From: Candidatus Uhrbacteria bacterium
Lineage (GTDB): Bacteria > Patescibacteriota > Patescibacteriia > UBA9934
DNA: 64,000 nucleotides
Reading direction: 5' to 3'
Assembly: GCA_963822405.1 (NCBI GenBank)
Contig: CAWGHH010000001.1
Location: forward strand, 87,296-151,295
Shown here: in pieces, positions 19,569-52,027 of the stretch
How the letters are laid out: every line of letters starts with the position of its first letter
Position numbering within the stretch: position 1 is the stretch's first letter
Program-made: the position numbers and the translations under genes
The notes under the pieces: model-generated
Database searches by the model: none
What the model was told of the DNA's origin: nothing
Seen by the model: the letters and a program-made list of their open reading frames with translations, nothing else

Positions 19569-20450
19569 ATGTCTGTAAAAAAAGCACAAAAAATTCGCAA
19601 GGCAATTATTCCGGTAGCTGGAATGGGAACCAGGTTTTTGCCAGCTACTAAGGCTCAGCCAAAGGAAATGTTGGCGGTTGTAGACAAACCAGTGATTCAA
19701 TATATCGTCGAGGAAGCAGTGGCCGCTGGAATAGAGGAGATCATCTTCGTCACGGCCATGGGCAAGCGGGCACTTGAAGATCACTTTGATCGCAACTTCG
19801 AGTTGGAGTATCGCTTAGAGCAAAAAAAGAAGATGGCCGAGCTAAAAGCCATTCAAGCCATTGGCAAACTTGCTAAATTTGCCTTCGTCCGTCAGCAAAA
19901 ACCAATGGGGGATGGGCACGCGTTACTTGCCGCTGCACCTTTTGTTGGAAGCGATGAAACCGTAGCAATTTTTACGGGGGATGACATTTTTTCCGGAGAT
20001 AGACCAGCTATTGGCGAGCTCATGGAGACATACGCTAAGTTCGGCGCGCCTGTTGTTGGCGTCCAAGAGGTGCCTCACGAGAAAGTTTCTAGTTATGGAA
20101 TTATTGATGGCGTTGAAATTGCTGGTAACACTTGGGAAGTGAAGAGGTTCGTGGAAAAGCCTTCACCAGAAGACGCGCCATCAAACCTAGCTTCAGTTGG
20201 TCGATACATTATTACTCCAGAAATTTTGCGGATGCTTGAAAAGCAGAAGCCGGGAAAAGACGGAGAAATTCGACTAGCCGACGCATTTACTACATATGTT
20301 GATGCCGGAAAGCAATTATTCGGCCAAGTATTAACTGGTAAGCGGTATGATTGTGGCAATAAACTCCAGTTCATCATCGCTCAAATCGAGCTTGGTTTAA
20401 TGCATCCAGAGGTGAAAGAAGGCTTAGCCGAATACCTAAGGTCCAGATAG
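19569..20450 (+). CDS. galU: UTP--glucose-1-phosphate uridylyltransferase
   Basis: KAIIPVAGMGTRFLPATKAQPKEML...VRQQKPMGDGHA signature. Confidence 0.85.
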   Translation: MSVKKAQKIRKAIIPVAGMGTRFLPATKAQPKEMLAVVDKPVIQYIVEEAVAAGIEEIIFVTAMGKRALEDHFDRNFELEYRLEQKKKMAELKAIQAIGKLAKFAFVRQQKPMGDGHALLAAAPFVGSDETVAIFTGDDIFSGDRPAIGELMETYAKFGAPVVGVQEVPHEKVSSYGIIDGVEIAGNTWEVKRFVEKPSPEDAPSNLASVGRYIITPEILRMLEKQKPGKDGEIRLADAFTTYVDAGKQLFGQVLTGKRYDCGNKLQFIIAQIELGLMHPEVKEGLAEYLRSR

Positions 20451-20473: not shown

Positions 20474-21859
20474 ATGATTAAGCGCTTTCTCTCTTTTTTC
20501 CTCCTGGTTTCTACGCTAGCCATGGTTGGTGCCGGATGTTCTGGCGGTACTACATCGGCACCGGTTGCTAAGACGGTCACCTTGAAATTTTGGAGTGTAT
20601 TTGATGAGCAAGACGCCTATAAGGATCTTTTTTCAGCATATAGGGCAGCGCACCCTAACGTGACTATTGAGTATCGAAAATTCCGACCAGAAGAATATGA
20701 GAAAGAGTTGATCCGGGCGTTAGCTGACGGCACCGGACCAGATATTTTCTCAGTGCATAGCACTAAGATGGCCGAATTCCAGACGTTACTTTCCCCAATG
20801 CCAACGCAGATTAATATCAGCAATCTGGTTACTCAAGGAACTCTCCAAAAACAGACTGTACTTGTAGCTAAACAGGAGACGACCATTTCGCAAAAGGCTT
20901 TCAAGCAACAATTTATAGATGCAGTTTCTGAAGATGCATTCTTGAATTATTCAGCTGATCCAAAGGTAGCGGCCACTCCTCGGATCTACGGTTTTCCATT
21001 TGCCATGGATACGCTTTCACTTTTTTACAACAAAGATTTGCTAAACGCAGCCGGGATCGCTGAGCCTCCTACTGACTGGGATCTGTTCAATGCGTCAGTC
21101 ATGAAGCTTACTAAGTACAATGCGAACGGTGGCATCGCCCAATCCGGTGCGGCTCTTGGCACGGTCAAGAATGTAGATCGTTCTGGCGACATCATTTCTG
21201 TGCTCATGATGCAGAACGGCGCTCAGATGGCAGATCCAACCGGTATCGCCACCTTCGACAAAGTTCCTCAAGGCACGCCACAGGGAGTTTCCCCGGGTCT
21301 CGACGCTGTCACGTTCTACACAGACTTCGCCAACCCAGTAAAAGAGGTTTACACCTGGAATGACGGCTTCCCAAATTCCGTTGACTCTTTTGCTCGTGGA
21401 CAAACGGCCTACATGCTTGGCTATAGTTACGATATTCCAGTTCTGACTGCCTCAGCGCCAAAGTTAAATTACGGTATTGCGCCATTGCCGCAGATTGCCG
21501 GAGGGAAAGTAGTTAATTATCCAAACTATTGGTTACAGGGCGTATCAAAGACTAGCAAGTTTGGAGATTACGCCTGGAATTTCTTACAGTTTGCCTCTAG
21601 CCCTACAAATGTCACTAAATATTTGGGCAAGTCCGGTCATCCTACGGCTGTTCGCGGCCTTATTGCTGCTCAGCTTGAAGATGAAAAAATTGGCGTCTTT
21701 GCTGGTCAGCTTTTGACTGCTCAGAGCTGGTATCACGGTTTGGATTCAGACGCAGCTTTCAAAGCCTTGAACGATCTTTCTACTGCTATTCTGGTTGGTA
21801 CCGCAGAACCAAAGAAAGCCGTTTCTCAAGCTGCACAGATAGTCAGCCAAACGTACTAA
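20474..21859 (+). CDS. ABC-transporter-type extracellular solute-binding lipoprotein (family 1), with no adjacent permease genes
   Basis: Lipobox LAMVGAGC plus an SBP_bac_1-like N-terminus (KFWSVFDEQDAYKDLFSAY...GTGPDIFSVH). Confidence 0.65.
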   Translation: MIKRFLSFFLLVSTLAMVGAGCSGGTTSAPVAKTVTLKFWSVFDEQDAYKDLFSAYRAAHPNVTIEYRKFRPEEYEKELIRALADGTGPDIFSVHSTKMAEFQTLLSPMPTQINISNLVTQGTLQKQTVLVAKQETTISQKAFKQQFIDAVSEDAFLNYSADPKVAATPRIYGFPFAMDTLSLFYNKDLLNAAGIAEPPTDWDLFNASVMKLTKYNANGGIAQSGAALGTVKNVDRSGDIISVLMMQNGAQMADPTGIATFDKVPQGTPQGVSPGLDAVTFYTDFANPVKEVYTWNDGFPNSVDSFARGQTAYMLGYSYDIPVLTASAPKLNYGIAPLPQIAGGKVVNYPNYWLQGVSKTSKFGDYAWNFLQFASSPTNVTKYLGKSGHPTAVRGLIAAQLEDEKIGVFAGQLLTAQSWYHGLDSDAAFKALNDLSTAILVGTAEPKKAVSQAAQIVSQTY

Positions 21860-21898
21860 GAGGAGGCGACGGCGGTTTGTGTTATCATTCTTTTAGTT

Positions 21899-22393
21899 AT
21901 GCGCTTCCTCCGAAACTATATTCTCGCCTTTGGCCTTCTTGCTACTTTTTGGTTGCCTTCCGTGGCTCACGCAGCAACGTCGAGTGTTGAATCAGGCTAT
22001 GCGGATATTCTTTCCCAGGGTTTAATCTTTGCAAATATCTGTTCAGCTCCAGCGCCGGCGGCTTGTGCTTGTAGAGATTCTGGAAATTGTCAGCTTTCTG
22101 ACATGCTCCAAATTTTCGTTAACATTTCTATTGGTATTTTAGCTATTAGTGGTTCAGTTGCCTTGCTCATGTTCTTTTACGGCGGATTTACTTGGACAAC
22201 TTCCATGGGCAATCCTAAAAAGATTGAAACCGGTAAGGAAATTATCGTTCGAGCCGTAATTGGTCTCGCCATTATCTTTGGCGCCTACGCTTTTGTGAAT
22301 TTCTTAGTCGCTGCTATTTCTGGCAAGGCTCCTCAAGCCACCATTGAGCAAACTATTGGCGGCGGTTCAGAAAACGTTATTCAAACACAGTAA
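21899..22393 (+). CDS. T4SS-pilin-like (TrbC/VirB2-type) small secreted membrane protein; Cys-rich variable region
   Basis: Signal peptide, then the conserved core NISIGILAISGSVALLMFFYGGFTWTTSMGNPKK...AVIGLAIIFGAY. Confidence 0.55.
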   Translation: MRFLRNYILAFGLLATFWLPSVAHAATSSVESGYADILSQGLIFANICSAPAPAACACRDSGNCQLSDMLQIFVNISIGILAISGSVALLMFFYGGFTWTTSMGNPKKIETGKEIIVRAVIGLAIIFGAYAFVNFLVAAISGKAPQATIEQTIGGGSENVIQTQ

Positions 22394-22395
22394 TT

Positions 22396-22959
22396 ATGCG
22401 GATTAAATCGCTGATTGTTCTTGCTGTAGCCTGCTGCATTTTCCTTGTGCCGAGAGCGAGTGTATTTGCAAGTTGTCGATCAGTGCTCGATGCTTGTTTA
22501 GCTGCGCCAGGCTGTAAGGATTCTGGTTCCTCAGACACACTTACGATCGTAGCCGAAGCTGATTGTCGAGCTGCGTGCGCCACAACGTTTGATGGTTGTC
22601 ACGATACCGTTGCTCCGCCACCCCCAGCCAGTCCGTCCCAAAACCAAAGCAGTTCTGGTGGCACGGCCTCGACTAGCAAAGTGGTGTCAGTGATTAACCC
22701 TTTAGGTATTACCGATCCAACTGTCATCATCGGAAATTTGATTCGCGCCATTTTGTCGATCGTCGGCTCACTGACTCTTCTTATGTTTATTTATGGTGGG
22801 GTGCTTTGGATAACTTCGATGGGGAATGACAAAACCGTTCATAAAGCTAAATCGGTTTTAACTTGGACAGTTATTGGTTTAGCCGTTATTGCTGGTGCGT
22901 ATACGCTAACGAACGCCGTGATTACTAGCTTGACCAGCGGTTCGGCACTTGGTATTTAA
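22396..22959 (+). CDS. T4SS-pilin-like protein (paralog 2), with Cys-rich and Ser-rich variable regions
   Basis: Core IGNLIRAILSIVGSLTLLMFIYGGVLWITSMGNDKT..KAK. Confidence 0.55.
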   Translation: MRIKSLIVLAVACCIFLVPRASVFASCRSVLDACLAAPGCKDSGSSDTLTIVAEADCRAACATTFDGCHDTVAPPPPASPSQNQSSSGGTASTSKVVSVINPLGITDPTVIIGNLIRAILSIVGSLTLLMFIYGGVLWITSMGNDKTVHKAKSVLTWTVIGLAVIAGAYTLTNAVITSLTSGSALGI

Positions 22960-22990
22960 TTATCCTGTCGGCTTGCCCTTAACCAGAAGT

Positions 22991-23467
22991 ATGCGAATTA
23001 AACCGTTTTTGATCGTTGCTACTTTCCTCCTAGCCTTCTTCATTCCGCAGGCTCACGTACTTGCAGATTGTGTGTCAGATTGTAATAGCAACATGGTTTG
23101 GACGGCGTCTAAGCGAGCGGAATGTGTCGCGTCGTGCTCGCAAGGTAACTTTGTGCAAACCGATCCTAATGGGGCATCGACAGATACAACTATCAGACTC
23201 GACAATCCATTAGTTTCTGGAGACCCGCGAGTAATTGCTGGAAATCTTATTCGAGCGATGCTTTCTATTACGGGCTCGATCTCGTTACTTATGTTTGTTT
23301 ACGGTGGCGTATTGTGGATCACGGCGATGGGAAATGAGAAAACAATCGATAAAGGAAAGAAGGTGTTAATTTGGGCGGTGATTGGACTTGCAGTAATTGC
23401 TGGGGCATATACGCTGACAAATGCGGTCATCTACGGTTTGACCACAGGATCCGTGTCTGGTCTTTAA
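22991..23467 (+). CDS. T4SS-pilin-like protein (paralog 3)
   Basis: Core AGNLIRAMLSITGSISLLMFVYGGVLWITAMGNEKT. Confidence 0.55.
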   Translation: MRIKPFLIVATFLLAFFIPQAHVLADCVSDCNSNMVWTASKRAECVASCSQGNFVQTDPNGASTDTTIRLDNPLVSGDPRVIAGNLIRAMLSITGSISLLMFVYGGVLWITAMGNEKTIDKGKKVLIWAVIGLAVIAGAYTLTNAVIYGLTTGSVSGL

Positions 23468-23521
23468 GCTGGTGTATAATATCTTGGAGATTTATTAGTT
23501 TTAATTTCTTTAACCATTCCT

Positions 23522-23932
23522 ATGGTGAAATCACTTATCAGATTCGGGATGAGCGCAGTCTTGGGCCTGGCACTCGCACTTCCTTTTGTGCGTTTGGTTC
23601 CAGCTTTTGCTCCAGTTGCTCACGCTCAGCCACTTGGTTCTGAGGACATCATCAGCTCAGACTTTGGCAACGCCACTGGTCTTGGCCAGGGTGATTTGAA
23701 GCAAACCATTGGAAACCTTATCCGTGTAGCGCTTGGTTTCCTAGGAGTAGTAGCAGTGGTTATTGTTCTTTACGGAGGTTTCAAGTGGATGGTATCCGGT
23801 GGTAGCGATGAGAAAGTGGGCGAAGCTAAGAAACTCATCATCAGCGGTATCATTGGTCTCGCAATTATTCTCTCTGCATACGCCATCACCACGTTCGTCA
23901 TTTCGAACCTGATGACGGCCGCGAACGGTTAG
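23522..23932 (+). CDS. T4SS-pilin-like protein (paralog 4)
   Basis: Core IGNLIRVALGFLGVVAVVIVLYGGFKWMVSGGSDEK. Confidence 0.55.
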   Translation: MVKSLIRFGMSAVLGLALALPFVRLVPAFAPVAHAQPLGSEDIISSDFGNATGLGQGDLKQTIGNLIRVALGFLGVVAVVIVLYGGFKWMVSGGSDEKVGEAKKLIISGIIGLAIILSAYAITTFVISNLMTAANG

Positions 23933-23980
23933 TTGTCTCATGTCTCCGTCCGCATCTTCCACGGAAGGTGCGGGCACGAT

Positions 23981-24370
23981 ATGCGAAAACTGGCAGCCGC
24001 TGGGCTAATGTCACTATCACTCTTGTTGCCGCTAAGTGCCGGCGCCGCTTTTAATGCGGGAGATTCTGGTTTGAATAAGACTGCTGAAGGTGCTTTTGGC
24101 GCTGGCTACACGGGCTCAAGAGGTAATATCGGAACTTTCGTTGGAACGTATATCATTAAGCCAGTTCTCGGCCTGCTTGGTTTAGTTTTCTTGATGCTCA
24201 TGGTTTACGCTGGCGGCATGTGGATGACGGCCATGGGAAATGAAAAACGCGTAGCAAAAGCAAAAGAGATTATGATTGCTGCGGTGATTGGGTCAGTAAT
24301 CATTGTAGCCGCATACACACTAACTAACGCGTTGTTCTCGGCTTTGAGTACAGGAACTCCAACCGGCTAG
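23981..24370 (+). CDS. T4SS-pilin-like protein (paralog 5)
   Basis: Core LGLLGLVFLMLMVYAGGMWMTAMGNEKRVAKAK. Confidence 0.55.
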   Translation: MRKLAAAGLMSLSLLLPLSAGAAFNAGDSGLNKTAEGAFGAGYTGSRGNIGTFVGTYIIKPVLGLLGLVFLMLMVYAGGMWMTAMGNEKRVAKAKEIMIAAVIGSVIIVAAYTLTNALFSALSTGTPTG

Positions 24371-24381
24371 TTAGGATTTTT

Positions 24382-24708
24382 ATGTCTACACTTTTGGCGA
24401 TTAACACTACCACAGGATTATCCGACGCCGGTCAAGGCGCCGGTTATTCTTTAACTCAAACTCCAGCAGAACTTTTGGGTTTTGGCATCCAACTAGTTAT
24501 TGGTCTTTTGGGGGTCGTTTTTTTGATCCTCGTTCTCTACGCTGGATTCACTTGGATGACTTCAATGGGGAACGAAAAAACAGTGGGAAAAGCTAAGGAT
24601 ATATTAGTTCGAGCCACTGTTGGATTAGTGATTATGATTTCGGCTTATGCTATTTCTTCCTATGTCATTGGCGCATTAGATGTGGCAGTGAACGGACCAG
24701 GTGCATAG
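24382..24708 (+). CDS. T4SS-pilin-like protein (paralog 6), apparently without an N-terminal signal peptide
   Basis: Core LVIGLLGVVFLILVLYAGFTWMTSMGNEKTVGKAK. A stop codon lies immediately upstream of the ATG. Confidence 0.5.
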   Translation: MSTLLAINTTTGLSDAGQGAGYSLTQTPAELLGFGIQLVIGLLGVVFLILVLYAGFTWMTSMGNEKTVGKAKDILVRATVGLVIMISAYAISSYVIGALDVAVNGPGA

Positions 24709-24778
24709 ACTGTCCACATCATTTAGTTAAGCTAGGAATTAATAGGTGTATAATTTCTGTAACATTCATTAATTTATT

Positions 24779-25174
24779 ATGAACAAGCTAAAGAAACTTC
24801 TCATTGGTGCGGCGTTGGTAGTAGTGCCATTCTCAACTGCAGTCATGAACGTTAGCGCTCAGACTAGCAAGATTGGCGATAGCTTGGGACAAGTCGGGAA
24901 TGCGGCTCAATTGGGTGGTGGCGGTGAAGACCAGTTGGTTAATACGGTTGGTAGCTTGATTACTACATTCCTTGGAATTTTAGGTATTGTTTTCTTGGTT
25001 CTTGTTCTCTACGCCGGATTCACTTGGATGACAGCTATGGGTGAAGAGAAGAAAATTGCATCTGCTAAGAATATTCTCATCTCTGCTGTTGTTGGTCTTG
25101 TGGTTATCATGTCGGCTTATGCGATTAGTAGTTTCGTGATCGCTCAATTGCAACATGCCACAACAGGAGTCTAG
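24779..25174 (+). CDS. T4SS-pilin-like protein (paralog 7)
   Basis: Core FLGILGIVFLVLVLYAGFTWMTAMGEEKKIASAK. Confidence 0.55.
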   Translation: MNKLKKLLIGAALVVVPFSTAVMNVSAQTSKIGDSLGQVGNAAQLGGGGEDQLVNTVGSLITTFLGILGIVFLVLVLYAGFTWMTAMGEEKKIASAKNILISAVVGLVVIMSAYAISSFVIAQLQHATTGV

Positions 25175-25182
25175 TTATAAAT

Positions 25183-25232
25183 AAAACCCCCGTCTTCTCG
25201 TCGGTTAGCCGATGGGGAGGCGGGTTTTTTGT
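25183..25232 (+). terminator. Imperfect G/C hairpin plus T6, ending the pilin-like array
   Basis: Read in sequence. Confidence 0.4.
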
Positions 25233-25359: not shown

Positions 25360-25966
25360 TCAGTTCCGGGTGCACGACGAGTTGAGCGGTTGATCGCTGT
25401 AGACGATCATTTTGACCTTGGTGACTTCGTCCGGCTGGAGGTCAGAGGGTTCACGGGTGATCACCTTGCAGGTGAACACGCGGGCGGCCTTTGCCGGTGC
25501 GAATCCGTTGCCAGCGTCTGCGTCGTTCATGACGCGCACGGGGCGGTATTGCCCGGGCGCGACCTGAACCGTCATCGGGATGCCGTCTGTCCAGGACTTG
25601 TTCGGATCTACCTCGTAGCCAATGGCGCCGAGGGCGTCACTGCTGGGAGCGATCCCGAACACGCTCGCTTGGGAGGGGAGGCAGTACCTCCAGCCGTCGA
25701 CGGTGAATTCCCCGACGCCGACCATATTCGGGCCATCAAAGGCCGTAACCGTCATGGTCGAGAGCCCCGTGTTCAGCCAGAGACAAGTTCGCGATTCGTT
25801 CTTGATGACGGTGTAGTGCGGCTTGAGCCGACAATTTTCGTTCGGCTCTTGGAGCATGAACGGTCCAGCCGGCAACTGCATGTTGGCGCAGCTGATTGAT
25901 TCGGGGCCGGTGATCATGTCCTGTGCGGAAGCGAGGGACAGGGCGAAGAGCATGTAAGTGAACATG
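25360..25966 (-). CDS. Secreted hypothetical protein (G+C-rich island)
   Basis: Signal peptide MFTYMLFALSLASAQD; RBS GGAG; six Cys. Confidence 0.45.
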
Positions 25967-26098
25967 GCGCACTCCAAAGTTGGGAAGGGATCTGACGGAT
26001 CTGAGGGCGACCAACGGAATATTCCGTGAGTCGCTCTGTAGATCCGGTCTCCATATACGCATTTTCATGCATTTATGGAGACCGTTCAAGTCGTGTGC

Positions 26099-26940
26099 CT
26101 AGTATCCCCAGAACCGATCCCACCAGGACTTGTTGACCTGGGCGTCGAGTTCCTTCTGCTTGGCGGTGAGCTGCGTCTGCAGGTCAGTTGCGTCCGCCAT
26201 GCTGGCGTCCAGCAGCTTCTGCGTGGTGTCGTCGACGATGGGCGCGGCGACCGGCTTGGTGACGCGGTCAACGTGCCGAACCGGCTCGTCGAGCACAGGG
26301 TACTGACCGCCAGTCTGACCGAACGCCATGAGCTGACCCATGCCGTTGCCGTAGCCGAAGGCCTGGCTCATCGGCATTTGGTTGCCGTAGATCGCCGTGG
26401 CCGTGGCCGCGGGCCAGTGGCTGCCGTGGTCGTGCCGTCCGGATTCGTGGTGATGACCACGGCCGGCGTAACGACACCGCTGTTGTTCGCGGTGATGGCC
26501 TCGAACGTGCCGGGCTGGAGAGCCGCGATCTGGGCAGGGGTCAACGTATGCAGGTCGACCGTCTTGGCCTTCGCGAGATCGTACGCGCCCTGGATGGCCA
26601 GCTTTCGCGTGTCGGCGTCGGTCTGATCGATCGCGGTGCGTCCGACGGATTCGAACCAGAGGGACTCCTCATGCGCACGCGCGATGTCGAGCGCGCCCTG
26701 GACTTCGATTCGGCTGGTGGCCGCGTCGTAGCCCTGGATTTGGATCCGTCCGCCCTCCAGGCACTGAGCCTGCATGAGGGCGAATTTCTCGGGGGAGACG
26801 TGGCCTTGGTAGGCACCGTTGGCGCAGTCGATCGTGCCCTCTCCCCGGCCGACAACGGAACCGTTCGGTTCGTTGTGGCGGTCCTGCGCGTTCGCAATGG
26901 AGAGCATCGAGAAGATAACGAACAACATTGTCCACCTCAT
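26099..26940 (-). pseudogene. Secreted hypothetical protein, apparently split by a frameshift near 26395-26420
   Basis: Signal peptide MRWTMLFVIFSMLSIANAQD. A protein-like translation continues in another frame (…ATATAIYGNQMPMSQAFGYGNGMG…) past a GCCGTGGCC repeat. Confidence 0.35.
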
Positions 26941-27011
26941 GAAAGCGTTCGCCGGAACAGCTGTGGAAACTATTCCATCAGCCCATCCGGACCGATAAGA
27001 ATAGCAGAAAA

Positions 27012-27026
27012 TTGACGTTTTGTCAA
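27012..27026 (+). promoter_or_regulatory. Palindrome TTGAC-G-TTTT-GTCAA containing a -35-like TTGACG in the AT-rich region upstream of the 771-aa gene
   Basis: Read in sequence. I could not place the -10 with confidence. Confidence 0.25.
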
Positions 27027-27189
27027 CCGTTATTCAATATATTATGGCTAAGGTTTGAGAGATCTATGATGATGGAGACCATTGACTTTTTCCCCTTTTT
27101 CTGCTAATCTCACCTGTCCTTAGGCGGCAAGAACCGTAAGGGACATTCTTTAACAATTCGCATCAATTTCTCACTAAACGAGGTGTCCC

Positions 27190-29505
27190 ATGATGGATTG
27201 GACGCGTCTGTTGACGCAACAGTTGCAAGAGTTTATGAAGGAAGAGGGGATCACTCCCCTTAACATTCATGAAAAACTGACCGGGGAAGTGCTCAAACGC
27301 TTCCTTGAAAAGTTTGCCGGTACGGCTGATCCCGTGCAGTTGCGCAAGCAGCTGGCGGATGCCCCTGGCGCCGCCGGTTTCTTCATTTCCCTCATGCTGG
27401 CTATGCCGGTTGAGGGACGGCTAGCCACCCTTCTCGTCCTTTCGGAAGTGATGAAGGCAGCGGGCTTGCCAATTCCCACCAGTGCCAGAACTGCAGTCAT
27501 TGCAGCTTTTGGTGCAATGGGCGAGGCCGGAGTAACTGACGCAGATGTGCGCCGGTACCGTTCTCGCGTGCTCTCGTATTTCAACAGCTCGGCCATTCCG
27601 GCTGAGTCAGTTCCTGTTCCCATCGAACCCATCACCGGGGCCTCGGCAGTGCCGACTCCAAAGGATACGAACATGAGTCCCCTGATCAATCCGTTGTGTC
27701 TCACTTGGCCGGTCACTCCGGTCGCAGTTGAGCAGCCGGGATTCCATGTGTTCGCCGTGCCGGGTGTCATTCATCAGGACTTCGGGCCGTCCGCGTCCGC
27801 GCAGACTCCCGAAACCGTCGCCGCGAGCACGACCCAGAATCCGTTGCCTGGTTCCGCTGAACCGCCTCCCTCGGGTGGCGATCCGGTGGTCCCGCCGAGC
27901 AATCCGCCGGAGCCCGTGACCGTGAACAACGTTCCGGTCACGCCTCCGTCCGGTGGTGGTGGGGCAATCCCTCCGTCCACCGGTCTCACTCCGCGCCGCG
28001 AAGGCCCGGATGGTAACCGGTGGCGGTACTTGGACTTCATCATCAATGACGTCCTGCCGTTGCGCGAAAACGAGACTTTGACTTTGCCCGATGGCCAGCT
28101 CAAATATCGATTTGGGTTGGCCTGGGTACAGGAGCACTTGGGAGAAGATTCCGCATTCGGCAAGCAGGCGCGTGAAGCGTTCTCGCTGTTGCCGGAGATG
28201 ACGGAATTGGAGCGTGCGACACTTGAGCCTCACCTTGTGGTGCTCAGGCGGGTGCACGCCCCGAAGAGCACGGTCACGAAGGCGGAGCGCAATCTCGCCA
28301 CCGTGCCTGTGAACGACGCGATCCACCTGTCGCACGCCTGGGACGTGCGGATCCGGGTCATTGCCCAGGCCAACGCCTGGTTCTGGCGCCGGTGGTTCTT
28401 GTTCGGCCTCGCGGATCTCGCGGACGATAAAAACGATGACGAGTTCCGTGAGTGGCGCAATGGAATCTTGAAGATCTTCGGATTCGGTTCCGCCACCACC
28501 ACGGCCGTTATCGCGATCGGCGCGCTCATGCTCGGTCGCAAGGCGTACAACTGGCTCACCAAAAAACCGGAGGCAATCACGAGTACAACGTCAGGTACAG
28601 GAGGCGGCGGCGGAAATTCCGGCGGCACTTCTCCGGGATCGACTCCGGCGAAAGAACCCACTCCGTTTGTGACCGTACTCGGATGGTTTCTGATCGTGGT
28701 GTGTCTGATCATGGTCATCCCATGGATTGCGAGCTGGTTCGTCGAGGGCATGTCCATTCGTGCTCTGATGGTGACTGCTCCGATCGTGACGATCTGGTGT
28801 GCCAAGTATCTCCCCTTCATCCATGATCCATGGGTGTGGCCGAGGGAGAGCGTCGTGCTAAACGACGACACCAACGCGCTCGTGAAAGGGCGAGTTGACG
28901 TGAAGTCGAGGATCTTCGAGGCGATCAACGAACGCAATTTGAAGTTGTTGCTCGTAACGCCAGGCATCTGGCGGCGGCTGCTTCTGAAGATTGCTCTCGG
29001 GGCCGTGTTGATTGGCGGTATCATCATGAACTTCGTCTTCATCTTCACGGGTGACTCACACATCGCGCAAGCCTCGATAACGGTCGGGATACTCGCGGCG
29101 GGATTTTTCCTTGATCTCGCCCAGCTCTTCAATGCATATTTCACGTTCTCAGAGATCGCGGATATGCTCAAGCCGGTGTTCAGGCCGGCGCTCAAGCTGA
29201 TCGTTGGCGTGATCGTGGTGGGTTTGGGGAGTGAGCTTCTCTTCCCGGGCATCGGTCAAGTCGGTTTGCTCGCTAAGGTTCAATCAACAACCAGAGCCTG
29301 GGCTCCGGTTTCCAAGGAAATGGTGAAGACGGGGTTCCTCACTGCTCCAGTTGGTGACCTGTGGTTCCGATCGGAACCCGTAACCAAGCCTTTGATCGCA
29401 TCCGTTTCCGGTACCTGCGCGTCGCGGGATCGGATGGAGGCGCGGATGGCTGGTTACTGCAGTAACGCCCAGACGAAGAACGACGGGCGTTGTAAGTGCG
29501 AGTGA
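27190..29505 (+). CDS. Large multi-pass membrane protein with Pro/Gly-rich linkers; function unknown
   Basis: 771-aa ORF in a G+C-rich segment with several TM helices in the C-terminal half. Confidence 0.5.
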   Translation: MMDWTRLLTQQLQEFMKEEGITPLNIHEKLTGEVLKRFLEKFAGTADPVQLRKQLADAPGAAGFFISLMLAMPVEGRLATLLVLSEVMKAAGLPIPTSARTAVIAAFGAMGEAGVTDADVRRYRSRVLSYFNSSAIPAESVPVPIEPITGASAVPTPKDTNMSPLINPLCLTWPVTPVAVEQPGFHVFAVPGVIHQDFGPSASAQTPETVAASTTQNPLPGSAEPPPSGGDPVVPPSNPPEPVTVNNVPVTPPSGGGGAIPPSTGLTPRREGPDGNRWRYLDFIINDVLPLRENETLTLPDGQLKYRFGLAWVQEHLGEDSAFGKQAREAFSLLPEMTELERATLEPHLVVLRRVHAPKSTVTKAERNLATVPVNDAIHLSHAWDVRIRVIAQANAWFWRRWFLFGLADLADDKNDDEFREWRNGILKIFGFGSATTTAVIAIGALMLGRKAYNWLTKKPEAITSTTSGTGGGGGNSGGTSPGSTPAKEPTPFVTVLGWFLIVVCLIMVIPWIASWFVEGMSIRALMVTAPIVTIWCAKYLPFIHDPWVWPRESVVLNDDTNALVKGRVDVKSRIFEAINERNLKLLLVTPGIWRRLLLKIALGAVLIGGIIMNFVFIFTGDSHIAQASITVGILAAGFFLDLAQLFNAYFTFSEIADMLKPVFRPALKLIVGVIVVGLGSELLFPGIGQVGLLAKVQSTTRAWAPVSKEMVKTGFLTAPVGDLWFRSEPVTKPLIASVSGTCASRDRMEARMAGYCSNAQTKNDGRCKCE

Positions 29506-29603: not shown

Positions 29604-31063
29604 ATGTCAGCTCTCGCAAAAAATTCAGCTTTACAAATTGGCGGTAAATTATTTGGGACAGTTTTTGGCCTCATCACTTTTTTCTTACTGCTTCAGTACT
29701 TCGGCACAGAGGGTTACGGTTTGCTGACTACGGCCATGACTTACGTGGCTATTTTTGGAGTGGTGGTGGACTTTGGTTTGACCTTGACTACTACGCAGAT
29801 GATTTCTGAGCGTGGGGCAGATGAGGAGAAGATTTTGGGGAACTTACTAACTTTGCGTGTGCTGTCGGCTTTGGTTTTTATGGCCATTGCGCCAGTGACT
29901 GCGCTCTTTGTGCCGGGTGTTAAGGAGGTTGTACTTTTGGTATGCATAGCTACTGGCTCGTCATTTTTTGCATCAGTTGGCCAGACGTATATTGGAGTTT
30001 TTCAAAAACGTTTACAGCTTGGCGCACCAGTTTTGGGCGAGATGCTGAATAGGTTGATCGCTTTGAGCTGGGTTATTGCTGCCGGCGTTTTACACCTCAC
30101 ATTATTTTACGCATCACTCGGATTCTTCGTGGGTGGCTTCGTCCAGCTTTGCATTATGCTTCTTGGGACGGCTCGATTTGTAAAACTTCGTCCTAGATTT
30201 GAATGGCATGTTTGGCGAGATGTTCTAGTTAGAAGTTGGCCGATTGGCATTTCTATCTTTTTTAATCTTTTGTACTTGAAGGGCGATATTCTGTTCATGG
30301 CCGTTCTGCTGGATCCAGCCAGGCGGTTTATTGAAATCGGACAGTATGGTTCCGCGTATAAAGTGGTAGACGTGATGACCATGGTGCCAGTTACTTTCAT
30401 GGGTCTCATGTTGCCGATCTTAACTTTGGCCTGGAGCGAGAGGAACCGGGAGAAATTTGATCGTAGCCTCCAAAACACATTTGATATTTTTGCGCTGATT
30501 GCCATTCCGTTTGCAGTTGGCGCAGTTATGCTCGGCGTGCCGGTAATGACAGCGGTCAAGCCTGACTTGATCCTTGCTGGTCAGGTGTTGGCGATTCTTG
30601 GTCGGCAGCCGCCATTGTATTCTTCAACTCGCTGTACGGCCATGCGGTGGTAGCTGTAAAGAAACAGAAGATTATGACTTTGGCGTACTTAGTGGTGGCC
30701 GTAGTTGCCATAGTTGGCTACGTCCTTTACATTCCTATTTACGGCGCCTGGGCAGCGGCTTGGGTGACCTTGCTGTCCGAGTCATTGATCGGTCTGTTTG
30801 CGTTCATAGTTGTTTCAATGACTACCAAGCGTTTGCCGAACTTGAAAATGACCGCTCGTGCAGTTGTCTCGACCATTGCTATGGCGGGGGTGATCGGATT
30901 TTTCACTTCTCGGTATGACGCTACGGCAAACCCAGCCTTAGCAGCCTTTATTGTAGTGACCGGTATCATTGTTTACGCTGCAGCTATTTCTGTTTTAGGC
31001 GGACCACGGCCACAAATGATTGCTAAATTGTTCCTACCCGAGAAACCAACAGGGAGTGTATGA
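29604..31063 (+). pseudogene. wzx: Wzx-type polysaccharide/oligosaccharide flippase (MOP superfamily) split by a -1 frameshift near 30597-30602
   Basis: Polysaccharide-biosynthesis-protein N-terminus plus the typical C-terminal helices. Frames join as ...LAILG|SAAAIVFFNSLYGHA...; the two parts total about 487 aa. Confidence 0.55.
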
Positions 31064-32279
31064 CCATGATTATTGTTCTTCTCGTTTCAATTTCTTTTGC
31101 ATATTTAACATATCGCGACTTTAAGCTCGCGCTTTTTGTTCTCTTGGCGCTCTTGCCAACCTACCTGATTCGTTTTTCGATCGGCCCCGTGCCGACTACA
31201 TTACTCGAGTGCCTAGTGCTCATAGCTATCGGGTTTTGGTTCGTTCGAGAGAATGGTTTTAAGCTCGATTTCTTACGGACAATGGCCCGTATCGAGTTCC
31301 GATTTTGCTTCTGCTCGCCGCTTCCTGTTTTTCGGTAGTCGTCGCGCCTGATGTATTTTCCGCACTTGGTATTTGGAAAGCCTATTTTATCGAGCCGATA
31401 CTTTTGTTCTTCGTGTTTCGGTCTACGTTTACCGAACGCAAAGATTGGGAATACGGATTTTTCGCTCTTGGTGGTACGGTTATCGTTTTGTCGATCTTCG
31501 CAGTCGTCCAACGACTCACTGGCTTTGGTATCCCAACCCCCTGGGACATTGAACTCAGGGCTACGAGTTTCTTCGATTTCCCCAACGCTCTCGGATTATT
31601 CGCCGCACCAATTACATCCGCGGCCTTGGTGTATGGGTTTGGCGTCGCCAAACCCGTACGCCGCGGATTTGCTTTCGCCATCGCTCTCCTCGGCTTCCTC
31701 GCCTGCCTCCTCTCCCAAACTGAGGCAGCTTTTGTTGCGATCCCCGCATCTCTCCTTTTGGTTCTCTTTGCGTCGAGCGTCCCTTCGGGATACAAAGCGT
31801 GGATCGGCTCGGCGGTTCTTCTCCTCGGTTTTGTTGCCTTCATGTTTGTTCCCATCATTCACGAGAAACTTCTTCTCCAGGATTTATCTGGTCAGGCTCG
31901 CTTAGCCCAGTGGAGCGAAACTTCATCGTACCTGAAGACTCACTGGTTAACGGGCGCTGGTCTTTCCGGCTATCCCTCGGCCATTAAGCCGTATCACGAT
32001 CCTCGAGTGTTCGAAATCTTCCAGTTCCCGCATAATGTCATTTTGAATTTCTGGGTCGAGCTTGGATTGCTCGGCGTTATCGCATTCGTCGCGTTTATTG
32101 TGGTGGTGGTGCGACGAATGGTCACGGCAAGTCGCGACCGTACAACGCAGGCAGATATATTCGTCCTCATGGCCTTCGCCGCTCTTTCGACAATGTTCAT
32201 CCACGGCCTCGTTGACGTGCCATTTTTCAAGAATGATCTAGCGATACTCGCAGCATTTTTCTTGGCAATGGTGTTATAA
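31060..32279 (+). pseudogene. O-antigen ligase/polymerase (Wzy/WaaL) family membrane protein, probably frameshifted near 31263-31300
   Basis: Multiple TM helices and an ETAAFVAIP-like loop. The 92-aa and 324-aa ORFs overlap in two open frames, and the second starts at TTG. Confidence 0.4.
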
Positions 32280-40204: not shown

Positions 40205-42394
40205 TTAGGAGATTAAAGGTATCGTTATGCCTTTTGCTTTGGCGAACCAATAGGCTAGGGCACCAAGGCTAGTTGTCAGTAATCCTCCTCCTACCCACGG
40301 AACCGGTTTGGTCGGTGAATTAATCGAGGTTGGGGTCGACCCATGCGTCGACCCTGCTGGTGGTAGGGTGGCTCCCCCTCCTTTCGAAGGAGGGGGTAGG
40401 GGGGAGGTGATTGGTCCGCTTTCGGTTCCCATCGACCCATTCAGGATGGTCAACCCCGTCTGGTCGAGGATCGTCACCGTCCACGCTCCCTTCACTAGTC
40501 GAACAATTCCGGTTACGGCTACGCGGTCATCAAAGGCGAGGTTAGAGAAGTCTACGGCTGTTGTTTTAGACGAGTTCGCAACGATCAGTTCTCCATTGTC
40601 GAGGCCGATTGTTAGACTCTTACCGGTAAGGTCAACAACCGAACCGCTGAGGCTCATGAGAAGACCGTGCGTTGCATCGTCGAGTGTTTCAAGCGCATCT
40701 GGCGCAATAGAGTCATCGCCGACAATTTGGATGTTTGATCGCTTGGATATTTTTAGTCGAGTGTACCCATCTTTCGGATCAACCACGCCTGTTACTCGAA
40801 TGCGCGTCATGGGCGAAAGTTTCGGCCAATCAGCTTTATTGAAGTAGATTTCTAGTCCGTCTATGTACGCCAGTTGTTTTCCAAACATGCCGGGGAGTCC
40901 AACCAGGACTCCCTCCACGGTAACCGTAGTCTTTGCGGCATAGTTCGTAATCTCCGATGCATCGATAACTGGAATTGCGGGTTCTGATTGGTTCGCTCCT
41001 CCCTCTCCACGAAGTGGAGAGGGCCGGGGTGAGGTCAGGGGTGGCTCGATCTGCGTACTCGCAGCTACTACGCCCGTTGCCACTTGAGGTTCGCGCTCCA
41101 CCCGAATAGGGGATGCGGTTCCGGTAGAATTGTCAGTCCCTGTATTTGATCCCGAATTGGTTTCAGGATTGCTGATAACGGTCGTAGTGTCGTTTGCTGT
41201 CTCATATGTGATGTTGGGGTCGACCCATGCGTCGACCCTTGAATTAGTACCAAGTGGCGTTGGATTAGTTTCTGCCCATGTGTCAGTGAATCTTGAGAAC
41301 GACCTTCCTTTTTTCGGCGCACTCGTTTTGTCATACGAGATTGCGTCGATCGTCGCTCCGGTTCCATCGAACAAGAAGATGCTGTCGCCATCATTATTCA
41401 GTTTGCTTTTTGGATTTTGCAGGACAAAGAATGAATGAGCTTCGAGTGTCTGTGTCGGCAACATTGTTTTACTTGTCGTTGCATCTTTTTCCGTCCAGCC
41501 TGTGAGGTCGATCGGTCCATCTGTCGTATTAAGGATTTCGATCCACTCTGTTCCGTCGACGGGATCCGACACAAACTCGTTGATGACTACGGAGTGTGCG
41601 GGGTACGAGTGGAACATGGGTGAGTCGGTGGCCGCAGGTGCGGTCGAAGGTATCGTTAGCGACGCTTTGCATTCAGGGGCGGCCGCCTCAACCGTCACGA
41701 TCCGTACCGGACAAATCAAGCACGGATCCGCAATCGGTACAGTCTTCTCAACCAGATCCACAACTAATGGCGGTTCTGGCTCGGGCGTGATCAGGAGTGG
41801 CTCGCTTCCCCCTTCCAGGGGGACAAAGGGGGTCGTGATCGGGGTGGTCAGGAATGGTTCGCTTACTCCCCCTCCTTCCGAAGGAGGCTCGCCCGTAGGG
41901 CTGGTAGTCAGGGCTACGCCCGAGGGGGGTAGGGGGGTGGTCGAAAACGCCGCCACCGGCGCCTCAAACTCAGGGGTGGTCGGGTAATGGTCAACTTCCG
42001 TCCCATCACTCGCAATCAGTGTGAGGTCCAGGGCAGAGTTCGACAGCGACACCGCAGTCGTCACCACATCAGGTTTTATGGTCAGCGTCGTTTTCGGGTC
42101 GCCGAGGTCGTAGTTGCTGATGAGGAACGTTCCGTTCGCTGGAATAGTCGAGTTTGTCGGGAGGGGGAGTGGTTTGCCCACTCCCGCCCCGCCTAGAATC
42201 GACCAGCCCGTAAGATCAATCAATGTGTCGCTTAGGTTTTTTAGTTCTAGCCATTCGTCCGCGGTGCTCGCTTCGCTGCCTGCCCAGTTGATTTGGCCAA
42301 AGGTGGCTTTGGGTGCTGCATCCGCACGGGCGGATAAAGGAGACAGAGCGGGCATGAGGGCGATGATTCCCAAGAGTCCATATGCTAGTTTCAT
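40205..42394 (-). CDS. Large secreted protein with two lamin-tail (LTD) domains and a C-terminal TM anchor, carrying at least 7 in-frame hairpin-repeat insertions
   Basis: LTD-like segments (INWAGSEASTADEWLELKNLSDTLIDLTGWSI; VVINEFVSDPVDGTEWIEILNTTDGPIDLTGWT). The repeats encode PPPSKGGG, GSTHGSTP, SPLRGEGG, RVDAWVDP, PLEGGSEP and PPSEGGG. Confidence 0.5.
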   Translation of the reverse strand: MKLAYGLLGIIALMPALSPLSARADAAPKATFGQINWAGSEASTADEWLELKNLSDTLIDLTGWSILGGAGVGKPLPLPTNSTIPANGTFLISNYDLGDPKTTLTIKPDVVTTAVSLSNSALDLTLIASDGTEVDHYPTTPEFEAPVAAFSTTPLPPSGVALTTSPTGEPPSEGGGVSEPFLTTPITTPFVPLEGGSEPLLITPEPEPPLVVDLVEKTVPIADPCLICPVRIVTVEAAAPECKASLTIPSTAPAATDSPMFHSYPAHSVVINEFVSDPVDGTEWIEILNTTDGPIDLTGWTEKDATTSKTMLPTQTLEAHSFFVLQNPKSKLNNDGDSIFLFDGTGATIDAISYDKTSAPKKGRSFSRFTDTWAETNPTPLGTNSRVDAWVDPNITYETANDTTTVISNPETNSGSNTGTDNSTGTASPIRVEREPQVATGVVAASTQIEPPLTSPRPSPLRGEGGANQSEPAIPVIDASEITNYAAKTTVTVEGVLVGLPGMFGKQLAYIDGLEIYFNKADWPKLSPMTRIRVTGVVDPKDGYTRLKISKRSNIQIVGDDSIAPDALETLDDATHGLLMSLSGSVVDLTGKSLTIGLDNGELIVANSSKTTAVDFSNLAFDDRVAVTGIVRLVKGAWTVTILDQTGLTILNGSMGTESGPITSPLPPPSKGGGATLPPAGSTHGSTPTSINSPTKPVPWVGGGLLTTSLGALAYWFAKAKGITIPLIS
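40332..40354. repeat. Hairpin repeat, copy 4 (inside the LTD ORF; encodes GSTHGST)
   Basis: Same 23-mer preceded by GAGGTT. Confidence 0.8.
41217..41238. repeat. Hairpin repeat, copy 5 (inside the LTD ORF in another frame; encodes RVDAWVDP)
   Basis: Same motif preceded by GATGTT. Confidence 0.8.
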
Positions 42395-44050: not shown

Positions 44051-45058
44051 ATGACTGATATGGTTTTTTCCCTCGCCGCACTTGTTCTCGCCCATCAATT
44101 GTCTGGTCGAATTCTTTTAGCGGTCGAAGACTCGGGAAAGGCTTGGTATGTGAATCCTGTGAATGAACAGCGTTATTCTCTCGGTTCGCCAGATGACGCT
44201 TGGTTTCTTATGCGTTCATTAGCGCTCGGCATCTCAAATGTCGATTTAGCTCAGCCCATTCCATCACGTCTTGCTGGTCGAATTCTGCTTGCAGTCGAGG
44301 ATCATGGCAAAGCTTATTACGTTAATTCTCTCACGTTGGAGTTGCATTATCTCGGTCGCCCCGCTGACGCTTTTAAAGTTATGTCCGAGCTAGGTCTTGG
44401 TATTACGGATGCTAACCTTGCAAAAGTGCCATTGGCGAGTGGCTCGCTTCCCCCTTCCAGGGGGACACAGGGGGTTCAGGGTGGTGCGTTGGTCCAGTTC
44501 ACCTCCCAAGCTCCCCTCGGCGAATGGTCAGACCCTCGCCAGCAAGAAGGTTGTGAGGAGGCATCCGCATTTATGGCGGTAAAGTGGGCGAAGGGTGAAT
44601 CATTCACTCCGGAGGAAGCGAAAAATGCGATCATCGGGATGAGTGATTGGGAGGATAAAACATTTTTGACTTATTTCGACACCTCGTCGGATGACACGGC
44701 GGATCGACTGGTGCGTCAATATTTGCAGTATGACAACTTCCAGGTACTAAAAAATATTACTACAAATGATATTAACGATCAGCTCGTGCGCGGGAATATT
44801 GTGATCGTGCCGGTAGACGGGCAGAAGCTTCAGAACCCAAATTATTCGAATGGCGGTCCGGTTCGTCACATGATTGTGGTGATCGGGTTTGATGCTCAGA
44901 CGAACGAGTTCATTACAAATGACCCAGGCACAAGAAACGGGGCAGGATATAGATACTCGACGTCGACCCTGGCCAACGCTCTTATGGATTATCCGTCAGG
45001 AAATCATTCAGCGCTCTCAGATTTACCCACGGCCATGATTGTGGTTTCAAAGAAATAA
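44051..45058 (+). CDS. Protein with two N-terminal ~45-aa repeats and a C-terminal C39-like (papain-fold) peptidase-like domain (tentative)
   Basis: Repeats GRILLAVED.GKA.YVN...; a Cys-containing segment EGCEEASAFMAVKW. Contains an in-frame G/C hairpin encoding GSLPPSRGTQG. Confidence 0.3.
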   Translation: MTDMVFSLAALVLAHQLSGRILLAVEDSGKAWYVNPVNEQRYSLGSPDDAWFLMRSLALGISNVDLAQPIPSRLAGRILLAVEDHGKAYYVNSLTLELHYLGRPADAFKVMSELGLGITDANLAKVPLASGSLPPSRGTQGVQGGALVQFTSQAPLGEWSDPRQQEGCEEASAFMAVKWAKGESFTPEEAKNAIIGMSDWEDKTFLTYFDTSSDDTADRLVRQYLQYDNFQVLKNITTNDINDQLVRGNIVIVPVDGQKLQNPNYSNGGPVRHMIVVIGFDAQTNEFITNDPGTRNGAGYRYSTSTLANALMDYPSGNHSALSDLPTAMIVVSKK

Positions 45059-45093
45059 TGTAAAATAGTTTAGAAAATAAGTAATATTCTCCT

Positions 45094-46260
45094 ATGTCTG
45101 ACCAGTTCACAACAGTGACCACAAAAGGTTACGGCTCGCGCATAATGTCATCCATTCAGGGGGTATTGATTGGTTTTGTGCTATTTATTGTCTCTTTTGG
45201 TGTTTTATACTGGAATGAAGGTCGAGTTGATCTGTCGACAATTGCAAAAAAGTCCGTTGAAATTAGCGGAACAGAATTAGCCAAAGACCAGGATGGTACA
45301 TTTGTGTCAGCGAGCGGCACAGTAACGAGCGAAGAATCACTTGGTGACGGCACAATGCTTGTTCCTGGTAAGTATCTCTCTGTAACTCGAAAAGCTGAGA
45401 TGTACGCTTGGGTAGAAGACAAGAAAGAAGAAACAAAGAGCAATACTGGCGGATCGGAAACTACCACGACCACCTACACTTACAAAAAAGAGTGGACTTC
45501 TAACCCGGCAGATTCCAGTTCATTCAAGGAACAGACTGGTCACCAGAACCCAGCTTTGACCGCTCAGGCTGGAGACTATCAAGTAGGCACATTGAAGGTT
45601 GGCGTATATGCCGTTGACGGAAAGACCGTTTCTCTTCCAGGTGAATCCGATGTGTCATTGACGACTACGAACATTGTTGCCCCAGCTGGCGCAACAGTTT
45701 CTGGCAACGCCGTTTACTTGAATAACGCTAATGCATCCTCACCTATAGTAGGCGATCAGCGCATTTCTTACACCGCGCTTGATTCGGGATTTGACGGAAC
45801 AGTGTTTGGTGAGCTTCATGGCGCTAAGATTACCAAGTACTCGGACGCTAAGGGCAACGAGATCTACCGTATCTTCACCGGTAACCGCGCCGCCGCTCTC
45901 GCTACCATGCACGGCGAATTTGTGATGATGCTTTGGATCTTCCGTTTGGTTGGTTTCTTCATGATGTGGTCAGGTCTCTCGATGATTCTTGCGCCAATCG
46001 CAATTATCTTGGACTTCTTCCCAATCTTGGGCAGCCTTGGCAAGATGGCGATTAACCTTGTGACTTTGGTTGTCGCCTTGCCACTTGCAATCATCACGAT
46101 CATCGTTTCGGCGGTCTTGCACTCCATTGTTGCTCTTTTGATCGTTCTCGCTCTCGCGCTTGGTGGCATCGGTTACTTGATCTACAAAAATAAGGACAAA
46201 GTAAAAATGCCAGCTATGCCTTCCATGTCAGACGTGGCCGGTAAGATGATGGGTAAATAA
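45094..46260 (+). CDS. Membrane protein (N-terminal TM, large extracytoplasmic domain, C-terminal TM bundle; TMEM43/DUF1625-like topology)
   Basis: Hydrophobicity pattern only. Confidence 0.35.
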   Translation: MSDQFTTVTTKGYGSRIMSSIQGVLIGFVLFIVSFGVLYWNEGRVDLSTIAKKSVEISGTELAKDQDGTFVSASGTVTSEESLGDGTMLVPGKYLSVTRKAEMYAWVEDKKEETKSNTGGSETTTTTYTYKKEWTSNPADSSSFKEQTGHQNPALTAQAGDYQVGTLKVGVYAVDGKTVSLPGESDVSLTTTNIVAPAGATVSGNAVYLNNANASSPIVGDQRISYTALDSGFDGTVFGELHGAKITKYSDAKGNEIYRIFTGNRAAALATMHGEFVMMLWIFRLVGFFMMWSGLSMILAPIAIILDFFPILGSLGKMAINLVTLVVALPLAIITIIVSAVLHSIVALLIVLALALGGIGYLIYKNKDKVKMPAMPSMSDVAGKMMGK

Positions 46261-48779: not shown

Positions 48780-51845
<3,066 letters not shown>

Positions 51846-51907
51846 CTAAGCATCAGTAAGTGCAGATCTCTATACAAAATAATACGAAGTTAAACAATGA
51901 AAGATCG

Positions 51908-52027
51908 CAGTGTCTTGGTGGCACTTTCTGCAGGGTCACACCCGTTCCCATCCCGAACACGGCCGTTAAGCCTGCATGAGCCGATGGTAGTTAAGTGTAG
52001 CGAGAGTAGGTGGCCGCCAGGACACTG
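51908..52027 (+). rRNA. rrf: 5S ribosomal RNA
   Basis: Helix I CAGTGTCTTGGTGGC/GCCGCCAGGACACTG; internal CCGAACACGGCCGTTAAG and CGAGAGTAGG. Confidence 0.8.

Follow-up and report, generated by a model that had tools for sequence, protein, structure and literature searches.

Much of the bacterial diversity that has yet to be cultivated consists of Patescibacteria, and the role that type IV secretion systems (T4SS) and their VirB2-like pilins play in them is an open question, the pilins being essential in the one species tested. When 3,035 Patescibacteria genomes were screened with PF18895, PF04956 and the CONJScan pilin profiles, 441 VirB2 arrays of 2-11 genes were found in 383 assemblies, with identity within arrays averaging 25% and reaching 54% at most, and antigenic variation or adaptation to host strains was proposed for them (Quinonero-Coronel et al. 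2025; PMC12102498). Transposon sequencing has shown that Southlakia epibionticum cannot do without an array of six predicted pilins encoded inside its T4SS cluster (Wang et al. 2023; PMC10633639), and a 2025 review deals with six structurally conserved, divergent VirB2-like pilins that possibly form a pilus or conduit (PMC12857230). The array of concern here, described in an earlier note on the same DNA and of the kind published for such bacteria (PMC12102498, PMC10633639), lies in a 64,000-nt stretch of a Candidatus Uhrbacteria contig (CAWGHH010000001.1), below termed the window. Like the S. epibionticum ML1 cluster (SEML1_0006-0019) and the 441 arrays, it is a tandem set of PF18895/VirB2-like genes on a Patescibacteria chromosome, with about six structurally alike but sequence-divergent copies and no relaxase context. 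In contrast to the S. epibionticum array, it is situated outside a T4SS cluster and distal to virB4, and its relatives include assemblies scored as VirB4-negative; in contrast to both that array and the 441, it is invariably coupled to genes for a GalU-like UTP-glucose-1-phosphate uridylyltransferase (GalU) and a solute-binding lipoprotein (SBP), and its members are of six types that stand in fixed order and have orthologs across species. While the kind of array is known, the six fixed types, the coupling to GalU and SBP, and the virB4-distal position in a Ca. Uhrbacteria-like lineage are new. The reading favored here, at a probability of roughly 0.55, is that the array encodes six non-redundant VirB2-like subunit types of one heteromeric surface or membrane structure.

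Seven consecutive open reading frames (ORFs) on the + strand, spanning 21899-25174, are present just where the earlier note had placed seven tandem T4SS-pilin-like genes. All seven products score above the PF18895 (T4SS_pilin) gathering threshold of 26.6 bits (range 26.8-39.6), the sixth copy barely so, and as far as profiles can tell they belong to the PF18895 T4SS_pilin/VirB2 superfamily, firmly so for PF18895. Under the definition used for Patescibacteria VirB2 arrays (at least two VirB2/PF18895 genes in tandem or one gene apart) the seven consecutive genes form such an array, and their divergence from each other accords with the within-array divergence specified in the same survey (PMC12102498). 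Alignment reveals a C-terminal core of about 75 residues common to the seven, in which Y, G, W, G, K, G, A and Y never vary and which is laid out as a hydrophobic helix, a basic loop and a second hydrophobic helix; the shared core had been described correctly, apart from its YGG motif, in place of which three copies have YAG. Identity to the first copy is 27-32% in global alignment and that between copies 28-59% in local BLAST alignments, and a profile built from the family detects no further copy elsewhere in the window. Many of the related sequences are labelled Patescibacteria or Ca. Uhrbacteria, in keeping with the earlier assignment to an ultra-small bacterium. For copies 3 and 5 the listed ORFs start at TTG codons, and the likely true starts are the ATGs further downstream at 22991 and 23981, which yield classical signal peptides.

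The array is real and old. Identity between copies at the DNA level is at most 74% over a 103-nt core, that moderate value being for copies 6 and 7 (types T5 and T6 below), neither tandem DNA repeats nor high-identity tracts between copies were found within the array, and its last five genes and part of a sixth are in the same order in an independent Logan assembly. On these three grounds an assembly artefact and a recent duplication are ruled out. An exact look-up in the contig index found paralog 7 but not paralog 2.

Comparison with other genomes used the SBP alignment as an independent anchor, with one genome per species, and the best 80 loci (designated by L numbers) of 546 relatives. Reciprocal best hits and a neighbor-joining tree of the core resolve six clades, T1 to T6, each represented by one gene per genome at the same array position. 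Copies 2 and 3 of the window both belong to T2, so that the number seven is due to one extra type 2 duplicate rather than to ongoing diversification. With the 80 loci typed by type-specific profiles, for which the margins for T1-T3 are tens of bits, not one of the 80 species-level loci departs from the order 1-2-3-..., T1 being first throughout, and '123456' occurs in about 30. A duplicated T2 ('1223...') is present in seven other loci (L054, L056, L064, L068, L071, L079 and L086), and copy number across loci has a mode of six and a range of 4-9. The rate of change was gauged as identity relative to SBP and GalU in the same genome pairs for all proteins, the window being compared with L006, L008 and L010; in the nearest relatives SBP identity is about 82% and synonymous sites are presumably saturated. 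Identity is 68-72% for GalU and 49-55% for SBP, and for the pilin-like types it is 47-49% (T1), 38-53% (T2), 56-62% (T3, with 90% to L002), 48-50% (T4), 41-45% (T5) and 35-50% (T6). By this gauge the pilin-like genes, ectodomains included, evolve about as fast as SBP and are not hypervariable. The six orthologous types, their fixed order and their SBP-like rates speak for non-redundant subunits of one assembly, and so for a heteromeric structure, rather than for a repertoire that is diversifying.

A diversifying repertoire is what had been supposed when the earlier note suggested antigenic or receptor-specificity diversification; the paralogs would then be interchangeable pilins whose divergent ectodomains serve to evade recognition or to bind different hosts. 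The N-terminal regions do differ strongly between copies, T2 sporadically acquires Cys-rich modules and is repeatedly duplicated, copy number varies, and there is precedent in Bartonella and Anaplasma phagocytophilum, whose VirB2-like genes are likewise amplified in tandem according to what the survey relates of them (PMC12102498). Yet those arrays are read there as antigenic or host-interaction variation, whereas here orthology, order and rate point to fixed non-redundant types: every type can be followed as positional orthologs through dozens of species, the ectodomains of T1 and T3 are conserved and the T1 cysteines invariant, divergence stays near that of SBP, no gene-conversion-like DNA similarity is seen beyond the moderate T5/T6 figure, and the hypervariable genes are an adjacent trio (considered further below) rather than the pilins. 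Antigenic or host-range variation is on this balance quite unlikely.

By hydropathy, six of the seven copies have a signal-like segment followed by two transmembrane (TM) segments, and copy 6 has the two TM segments only. The suspicion that copy 6 is without a signal peptide is thus borne out, and an upstream start for it is impossible because the previous stop codon is only 11 nt away. Absence of the segment is a recurrent trait of T5, to which copy 6 belongs, as it is missing from 14 of 43 T5 genes versus at most 10% of those of the other types; the nearest T5 ortholog (L003_2) is without a signal peptide, and L004_5 and L010_5 have one. The loop joining the helices contains 2-4 Lys or Arg residues in all seven copies. 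Copies 4-7 are cysteine-free as had been asserted, and copies 1-3 do contain cysteines, though in totals of 4, 8 and 4 (two of the eight being within the signal peptide) instead of the 6-8 each that had been estimated. In 40 T1 orthologs C48, C58, R59, G62 and C64 are invariant, giving the motif C...C-x-C-R-x2-G-x-C. Ectodomain cysteine numbers are even, typically four in T1, mostly none but sporadically 4-28 in T2 (53 of 64 T2 orthologs have none), and none in T3-T6, and such even numbers fit disulfide-bonded extracellular modules. AlphaFold2 models are of a helical hairpin for both T6 (helices 50-85 and 90-129; predicted local distance difference test, pLDDT, at least 90 in the core) and T1 (helices 66-100 and 106-141; core pLDDT 80-90), with a small ordered Cys-containing ectodomain ahead of the hairpin in the latter.

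Taken together with the hairpin topology, this suggests that six of the seven copies would be exported through Sec by means of a cleavable signal peptide and that the hairpin would be inserted with its short Lys-rich loop in the cytoplasm, leaving the variable N-terminal ectodomain and the C-terminus facing outward, with the ectodomains of T1 and T2 probably disulfide-bonded. Signal peptides on six copies would also suit secreted effectors or small toxins, as in the older 'Sec-secreted array / putative effector' annotation from TM7x, and equivalent genes were named putative effectors in the TM7x transcriptome paper; as proteins with two long hydrophobic helices and a basic loop are predicted to stay stably inserted in the membrane instead of being released, and the sequences match PF18895 and VirB2 profiles, that explanation is very improbable indeed. 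For the six-subunit structure favored here, the array is envisaged as an old operon-like set, T1-T6 with T2 duplicated in this genome, that would be transcribed with or next to GalU and the membrane-anchored SBP. T3, the most conserved type and one with its own promoter-like box, may be the bulk subunit, and T1 and T2 with their Cys-rich ectodomains may be specialized subunits at the tip, base or adhesive site, a division into major and minor subunits that would be analogous to that of other pili. SBP would act at or with the assembled structure, be this a filament or a conduit, and assembly may depend on a VirB4 machine encoded elsewhere in the genome.

Several known systems bear comparison. 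With VirB2, TrbC and TraA (PF04956; the Agrobacterium T-pilus, 8exh, and F-family pili) the array proteins share a signal peptide, two hydrophobic helices and a short basic loop, as well as a profile similarity that is weak but recurs: PF04956 is matched individually by 24 of 40 T1 orthologs at E ≤ 0.01 (best E = 1.2e-6), and the MPF-T VirB2 profile matches Uhrbacteria copies in the published survey. Homology of the array proteins to classical VirB2 is on this basis probable. In contrast to these pilins, the array has several fixed paralogs instead of one major pilin and no adjacent VirB3-VirB11 genes, the ectodomains are long, variable and in part Cys-rich, and the organism is monoderm. The Mycoplasma integrative and conjugative element (ICE) proteins Mbov_0395 and MMCAP2_0565 (NCBIfam NF045849) likewise come from wall-less or monoderm bacteria and are small, with two TM segments, but there a single gene is embedded in the conjugation module of an ICE, and copies 4-7 score 23-34 bits against NF045849, under its cut-off of 40. 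Type IV pili and type II pseudopili are built as a single fibre from distinct small subunits that share one hydrophobic core and are encoded in a conserved operon. Each of these subunits has a cross-species ortholog and the exposed parts differ, so there is a functional analogy to the array, but it is not one of homology, since type IV pilins have a single N-terminal helix with a globular head and rely on a prepilin peptidase and PilB-type ATPases. A link to competence-related pili, also raised in the earlier note, found no support.

The constancy of the neighborhood introduces another explanation, namely that in Uhrbacteria the hairpin proteins no longer serve a T4SS and form a membrane or surface complex that works with SBP and the product of GalU, for instance to capture or take up a substrate or as a scaffold of the envelope. 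SBP had been called an orphan, but it is a conserved partner of the array: the array is beside it in every one of the 57 loci in which 4 kb or more downstream of SBP is available, directly downstream on the same strand in 54 and inverted within about 6 kb in three. Of the 80 loci, 79 contain a GalU-like ORF, which is immediately upstream of SBP in L002, L006, L008, L010 and a 586-kb JGI contig, its stop overlapping the SBP start by 4 nt in L006 and L008. SBP relatives sharing 49-83% identity fall into over 100 clusters, a good number of which are labelled Ca. Uhrbacteria, the orthologs of pilin paralog 7 share 55-71%, and the G21-C22 of the SBP lipobox is invariant in 25 orthologs. No permease or ATPase partner (BPD_transp, ABC_tran) adjoins SBP in the window or in the Pfam-annotated L002, L006, L008 and L010, and SBP adjoining arrays goes unmentioned in PMC12102498, PMC10633639 and PMC12857230.

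The observations that weigh against the favored reading, those on the secretion machinery first, are gathered here. A Pfam scan of every ORF of at least 400 aa and of most smaller ORFs near the array found no VirB4-, VirD4- or TrbL-type protein in the window, upholding what had been stated about the lack of T4SS machinery there, and genes of VirB4, VirD4 or VirB6 type are absent within 9 kb in all 80 loci; a Walker-A screen of these loci brought up ten large candidates, which are ABC exporters, SMC, flippase, oxidoreductase and SpoIID proteins and two without a family match. Going by the 'Presence of VirB4' column of the published Table S1, VirB4 is scored 'No' in four of the seven array-bearing assemblies of the locus set that are listed there, and in the Uhrbacteria-rich block of that table 18 of 36 Uhrbacteria assemblies are VirB4-negative versus 6 of 50 of other classes (Fisher p = 2e-4), the calls being made on draft metagenome-assembled genomes by one hidden Markov model (HMM) protocol so that absence is unproven. 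Median assembly size is the same, 1.02 Mb, in VirB4-positive and VirB4-negative Uhrbacteria. The linkage of SBP and array within one order could, for its part, be in some measure phylogenetic inertia. T4, T5 and T6 are mutually closer than the other types and hard to tell apart in more distant genomes. Of the two profile families proposed as a check, PF18895 is passed by all seven copies and PF04956 (TrbC/VirB2) is not, the best window protein scoring 15.4 bits (E = 0.022) against a threshold of 27.9, even though many T1 orthologs do match it. The pilin profile run against all PDB chains retrieved no pilin, only spurious matches to the designed 'Pizza' protein, and in Foldseek searches the T6 model had a best E of 0.6 with pilins absent among the matches, while for the T1 model the top match was 8dfu, an archaeal conjugative pilus (E = 1.1), and the VirB2 structure 8exh was at rank 14, neither being significant; such fold searches discriminate poorly for a hairpin. 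To our knowledge a filament has never been seen in any Patescibacteria, and we know of no experiment on this lineage.

In Uhrbacteria genomes the survey detects 1-2 VirB2 copies where about six are to be expected from the loci above, and the arrays of this group are therefore probably under-counted. Positions are also informative. In one VirB4-positive genome VirB3, VirB4 and TrsD are genes 2-4, with virB4 itself as gene 3, and the single VirB2 call is gene 584, and in one VirB4-negative genome the VirB2 calls are genes 552-553. A search for papers on Uhrbacteria and type IV secretion found none. The constant linkage of the array to SBP and GalU with the stop-start overlap, the lack of T4SS genes nearby, the frequent non-detection of VirB4 at equal assembly size, the distance of virB4 from the VirB2 call, and an SBP without adjacent transporter components would all suit a T4SS-independent complex. 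Against it, VirB4 is present in half of the Uhrbacteria assemblies and its absence from the others is open to the reservation given above, no transporter is known with VirB2-like subunits, the homologous S. epibionticum array lies within an essential T4SS cluster (PMC10633639), and the linkage could be synteny inherited within one order. Such a complex is accordingly possible though doubtful, and involvement of a T4SS in assembling the array is in this lineage uncertain; with the array universally conserved and VirB4 patchy, there is room for a T4SS-independent role. If persistence of the array without VirB4 holds true in closed genomes, the pilins would be uncoupled from the secretion machine and a role in uptake or the envelope would be indicated, whereas if VirB4 turns out to be universal, the array would be a virB4-distal and well-ordered example of a known system.

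How the array is expressed may be less simple than its compactness suggests. There is a single strong intrinsic terminator at its end, as had been noted, but that the array is a single operon is not assured because TGTATAAT boxes precede copies 4 and 7. The exact sequence TGTATAAT, which resembles an extended -10 box, occurs three times in the whole window and two of the occurrences are in the gaps before T3 and T6, where the box reads GGTGTATAAT at 23471-23480 and GGTGTATAAT at 24745-24754. Both begin a 31-nt repeat of 77% identity (23471-23501 and 24745-24775). L002 too carries the box ahead of T3, and in L012 a copy stands at a comparable, imprecisely mapped position. A further box, TGtTATCAT at 21880-21888, ends 10 nt before the T1 start codon and would give a near-leaderless transcript. 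Between T1 and T2 the gap is just 2 nt, and between T4 and T5 it is 11 nt. Judging from these consensus matches, the array may be transcribed in several units, T3 having a separate promoter.

The features of the module, together with the trio that follows it, are collected in Table 1.

Table 1. Module genes and terminator, with positions in the window; pilin-like genes coincide with the listed ORFs unless another listed ORF is given.
Feature	Coordinates	Strand	PF18895 (bits)	Remarks
GalU-like UTP-glucose-1-phosphate uridylyltransferase	19569-20450	+		first gene of the module; PF00483 E = 3e-29
Solute-binding lipoprotein, SBP_bac_1	20474-21859	+		461-aa ORF; lipobox; PF01547 74.3 bits
T1 pilin-like (copy 1)	21899-22393	+	30.7	small ectodomain with 4 Cys between signal peptide and helical hairpin; tail at the C-terminus
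T2 pilin-like, copy a (copy 2)	22396-22959	+	36.1	T2 clade; long ectodomain with 6 Cys and Pro/Ser-rich linker
T2 pilin-like, copy b (copy 3)	22991-23467	+	35.3	T2 clade, extra duplicate; 4-Cys ectodomain; listed ORF 22949-23467
T3 pilin-like (copy 4)	23522-23932	+	39.4	most conserved type; own promoter-like box
T4 pilin-like (copy 5)	23981-24370	+	29.2	reciprocal best hit at the corresponding position in every locus compared; listed ORF 23933-24370
T5 pilin-like (copy 6)	24382-24708	+	26.8	without signal peptide; 11-nt gap from T4
T6 pilin-like (copy 7)	24779-25174	+	39.6	last gene of the array; promoter-like box ahead
Intrinsic terminator	25189-25224	+		16-bp stem with 10 G-C pairs, then TTTTTTGTTT
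mA	25360-25977	-		secreted; forms a trio with mB and Big (25360-29505)
mB	26099-26940	-		secreted, apparently split; trio with mA and Big
Big	27190-29505	+		771 aa; variable N-terminal region, then polytopic membrane region

Five relatives on long contigs have the same module of GalU, SBP, five to six PF18895 genes, mA and mB on the minus strand, and Big, and this order is kept even where flippase, Wzy and SpoIID genes sit on the other side. The window itself has methyltransferases and a GalU-type nucleotidyltransferase as upstream neighbors, and a polysaccharide flippase, a Wzy_C protein, SpoIID and RuvB downstream of the trio. The trio positions are occupied in L002 (10482-13837), L006 (14700-18184), L008 (14266-17793), L010 (14277-18201) and L011. 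The G+C content of the trio is 0.56-0.71 versus 0.45-0.52 in its flanks, which puts it 8-21 points above both flanks in all five genomes examined, and at third codon positions (GC3) the values are 0.65-0.91 versus 0.39-0.58 in neighboring genes in four genomes. Over 49 loci the sequence following the array has a median G+C excess of +0.10, whereas the upstream side has one of only +0.007; an excess after the array recurs in 38 of the 49. Protein identity in the trio is 17-30% where that of GalU is 68-93%, and Big homologs are only 14-27% identical. Judged by such figures the part of the module that evolves fast is the trio and not the pilin array. The GC3 excess of the trio may stem from recombination with biased gene conversion or from exchange of cassettes.

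The trio has no matches to Pfam or to PDB sequences, those of mA and mB to Pfam being only coiled-coil or low-complexity noise. Big was considered as a cryptic VirB6/TrbL, and this is unsupported, as six positional homologs are without a Pfam match and no PDB sequence is matched. mB appears to be split or frameshifted: a 190-aa ORF (26368-26940) is followed by a 92-aa ORF in another frame (26099-26377), both frames are open across the junction at 26368-26377, and the smaller ORF, which shares the high GC3, has a C-terminal SWWDRFWGY ('SWW..GY') that matches the end of the single 257-aa L002 ortholog. A bolder proposal, for which the odds are low, combines the six-type set, SBP and GalU in one VirB4-independent surface apparatus, for instance a heteromeric membrane or filament scaffold presenting SBP for the capture of host-derived sugars, with the trio providing strain-specific host recognition and being kept variable by frequent recombination. 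Were it true, some of the Patescibacteria would use 'T4SS pilins' for a second purpose that is independent of secretion.

A Polysacc_synt flippase and a Wzy_C protein (of the O-antigen ligase or O-oligosaccharyltransferase type) are encoded at 29604-32279 and, with GalU, are near the array in all annotated relatives. Several of the pilin types end in Ser/Thr/Gly-rich tails such as LTSGSALGI and LSTGTPTG. It is conceivable that the pilin-like proteins are glycosylated.

Other observations concern the records and the remainder of the window. Many module-bearing contigs, L012, L015, L016, L021 and L022 among them, have the title 'uncultured Gammaproteobacteria bacterium' in public records that stem from bulk submissions of metagenome-assembled genomes, and one has the title 'Candidatus Binatia'; on contigs with the Uhrbacteria module these titles look like mislabelled taxonomy. 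Further along the window, other candidates for the envelope or surface are encoded at 40205-42394 (minus strand) and 44051-46260, namely a protein of 729 aa that has two lamin-tail domains, a Peptidase_C39-like protein and one of the TMEM43 family. Genes for 23S and 5S rRNA are at 48792-52022 with no 16S gene in the preceding 48 kb, and the window has four tRNA genes. At 3,032 nt the 23S gene is about 100 nt longer than the 2,925-nt model and may carry a small insertion.

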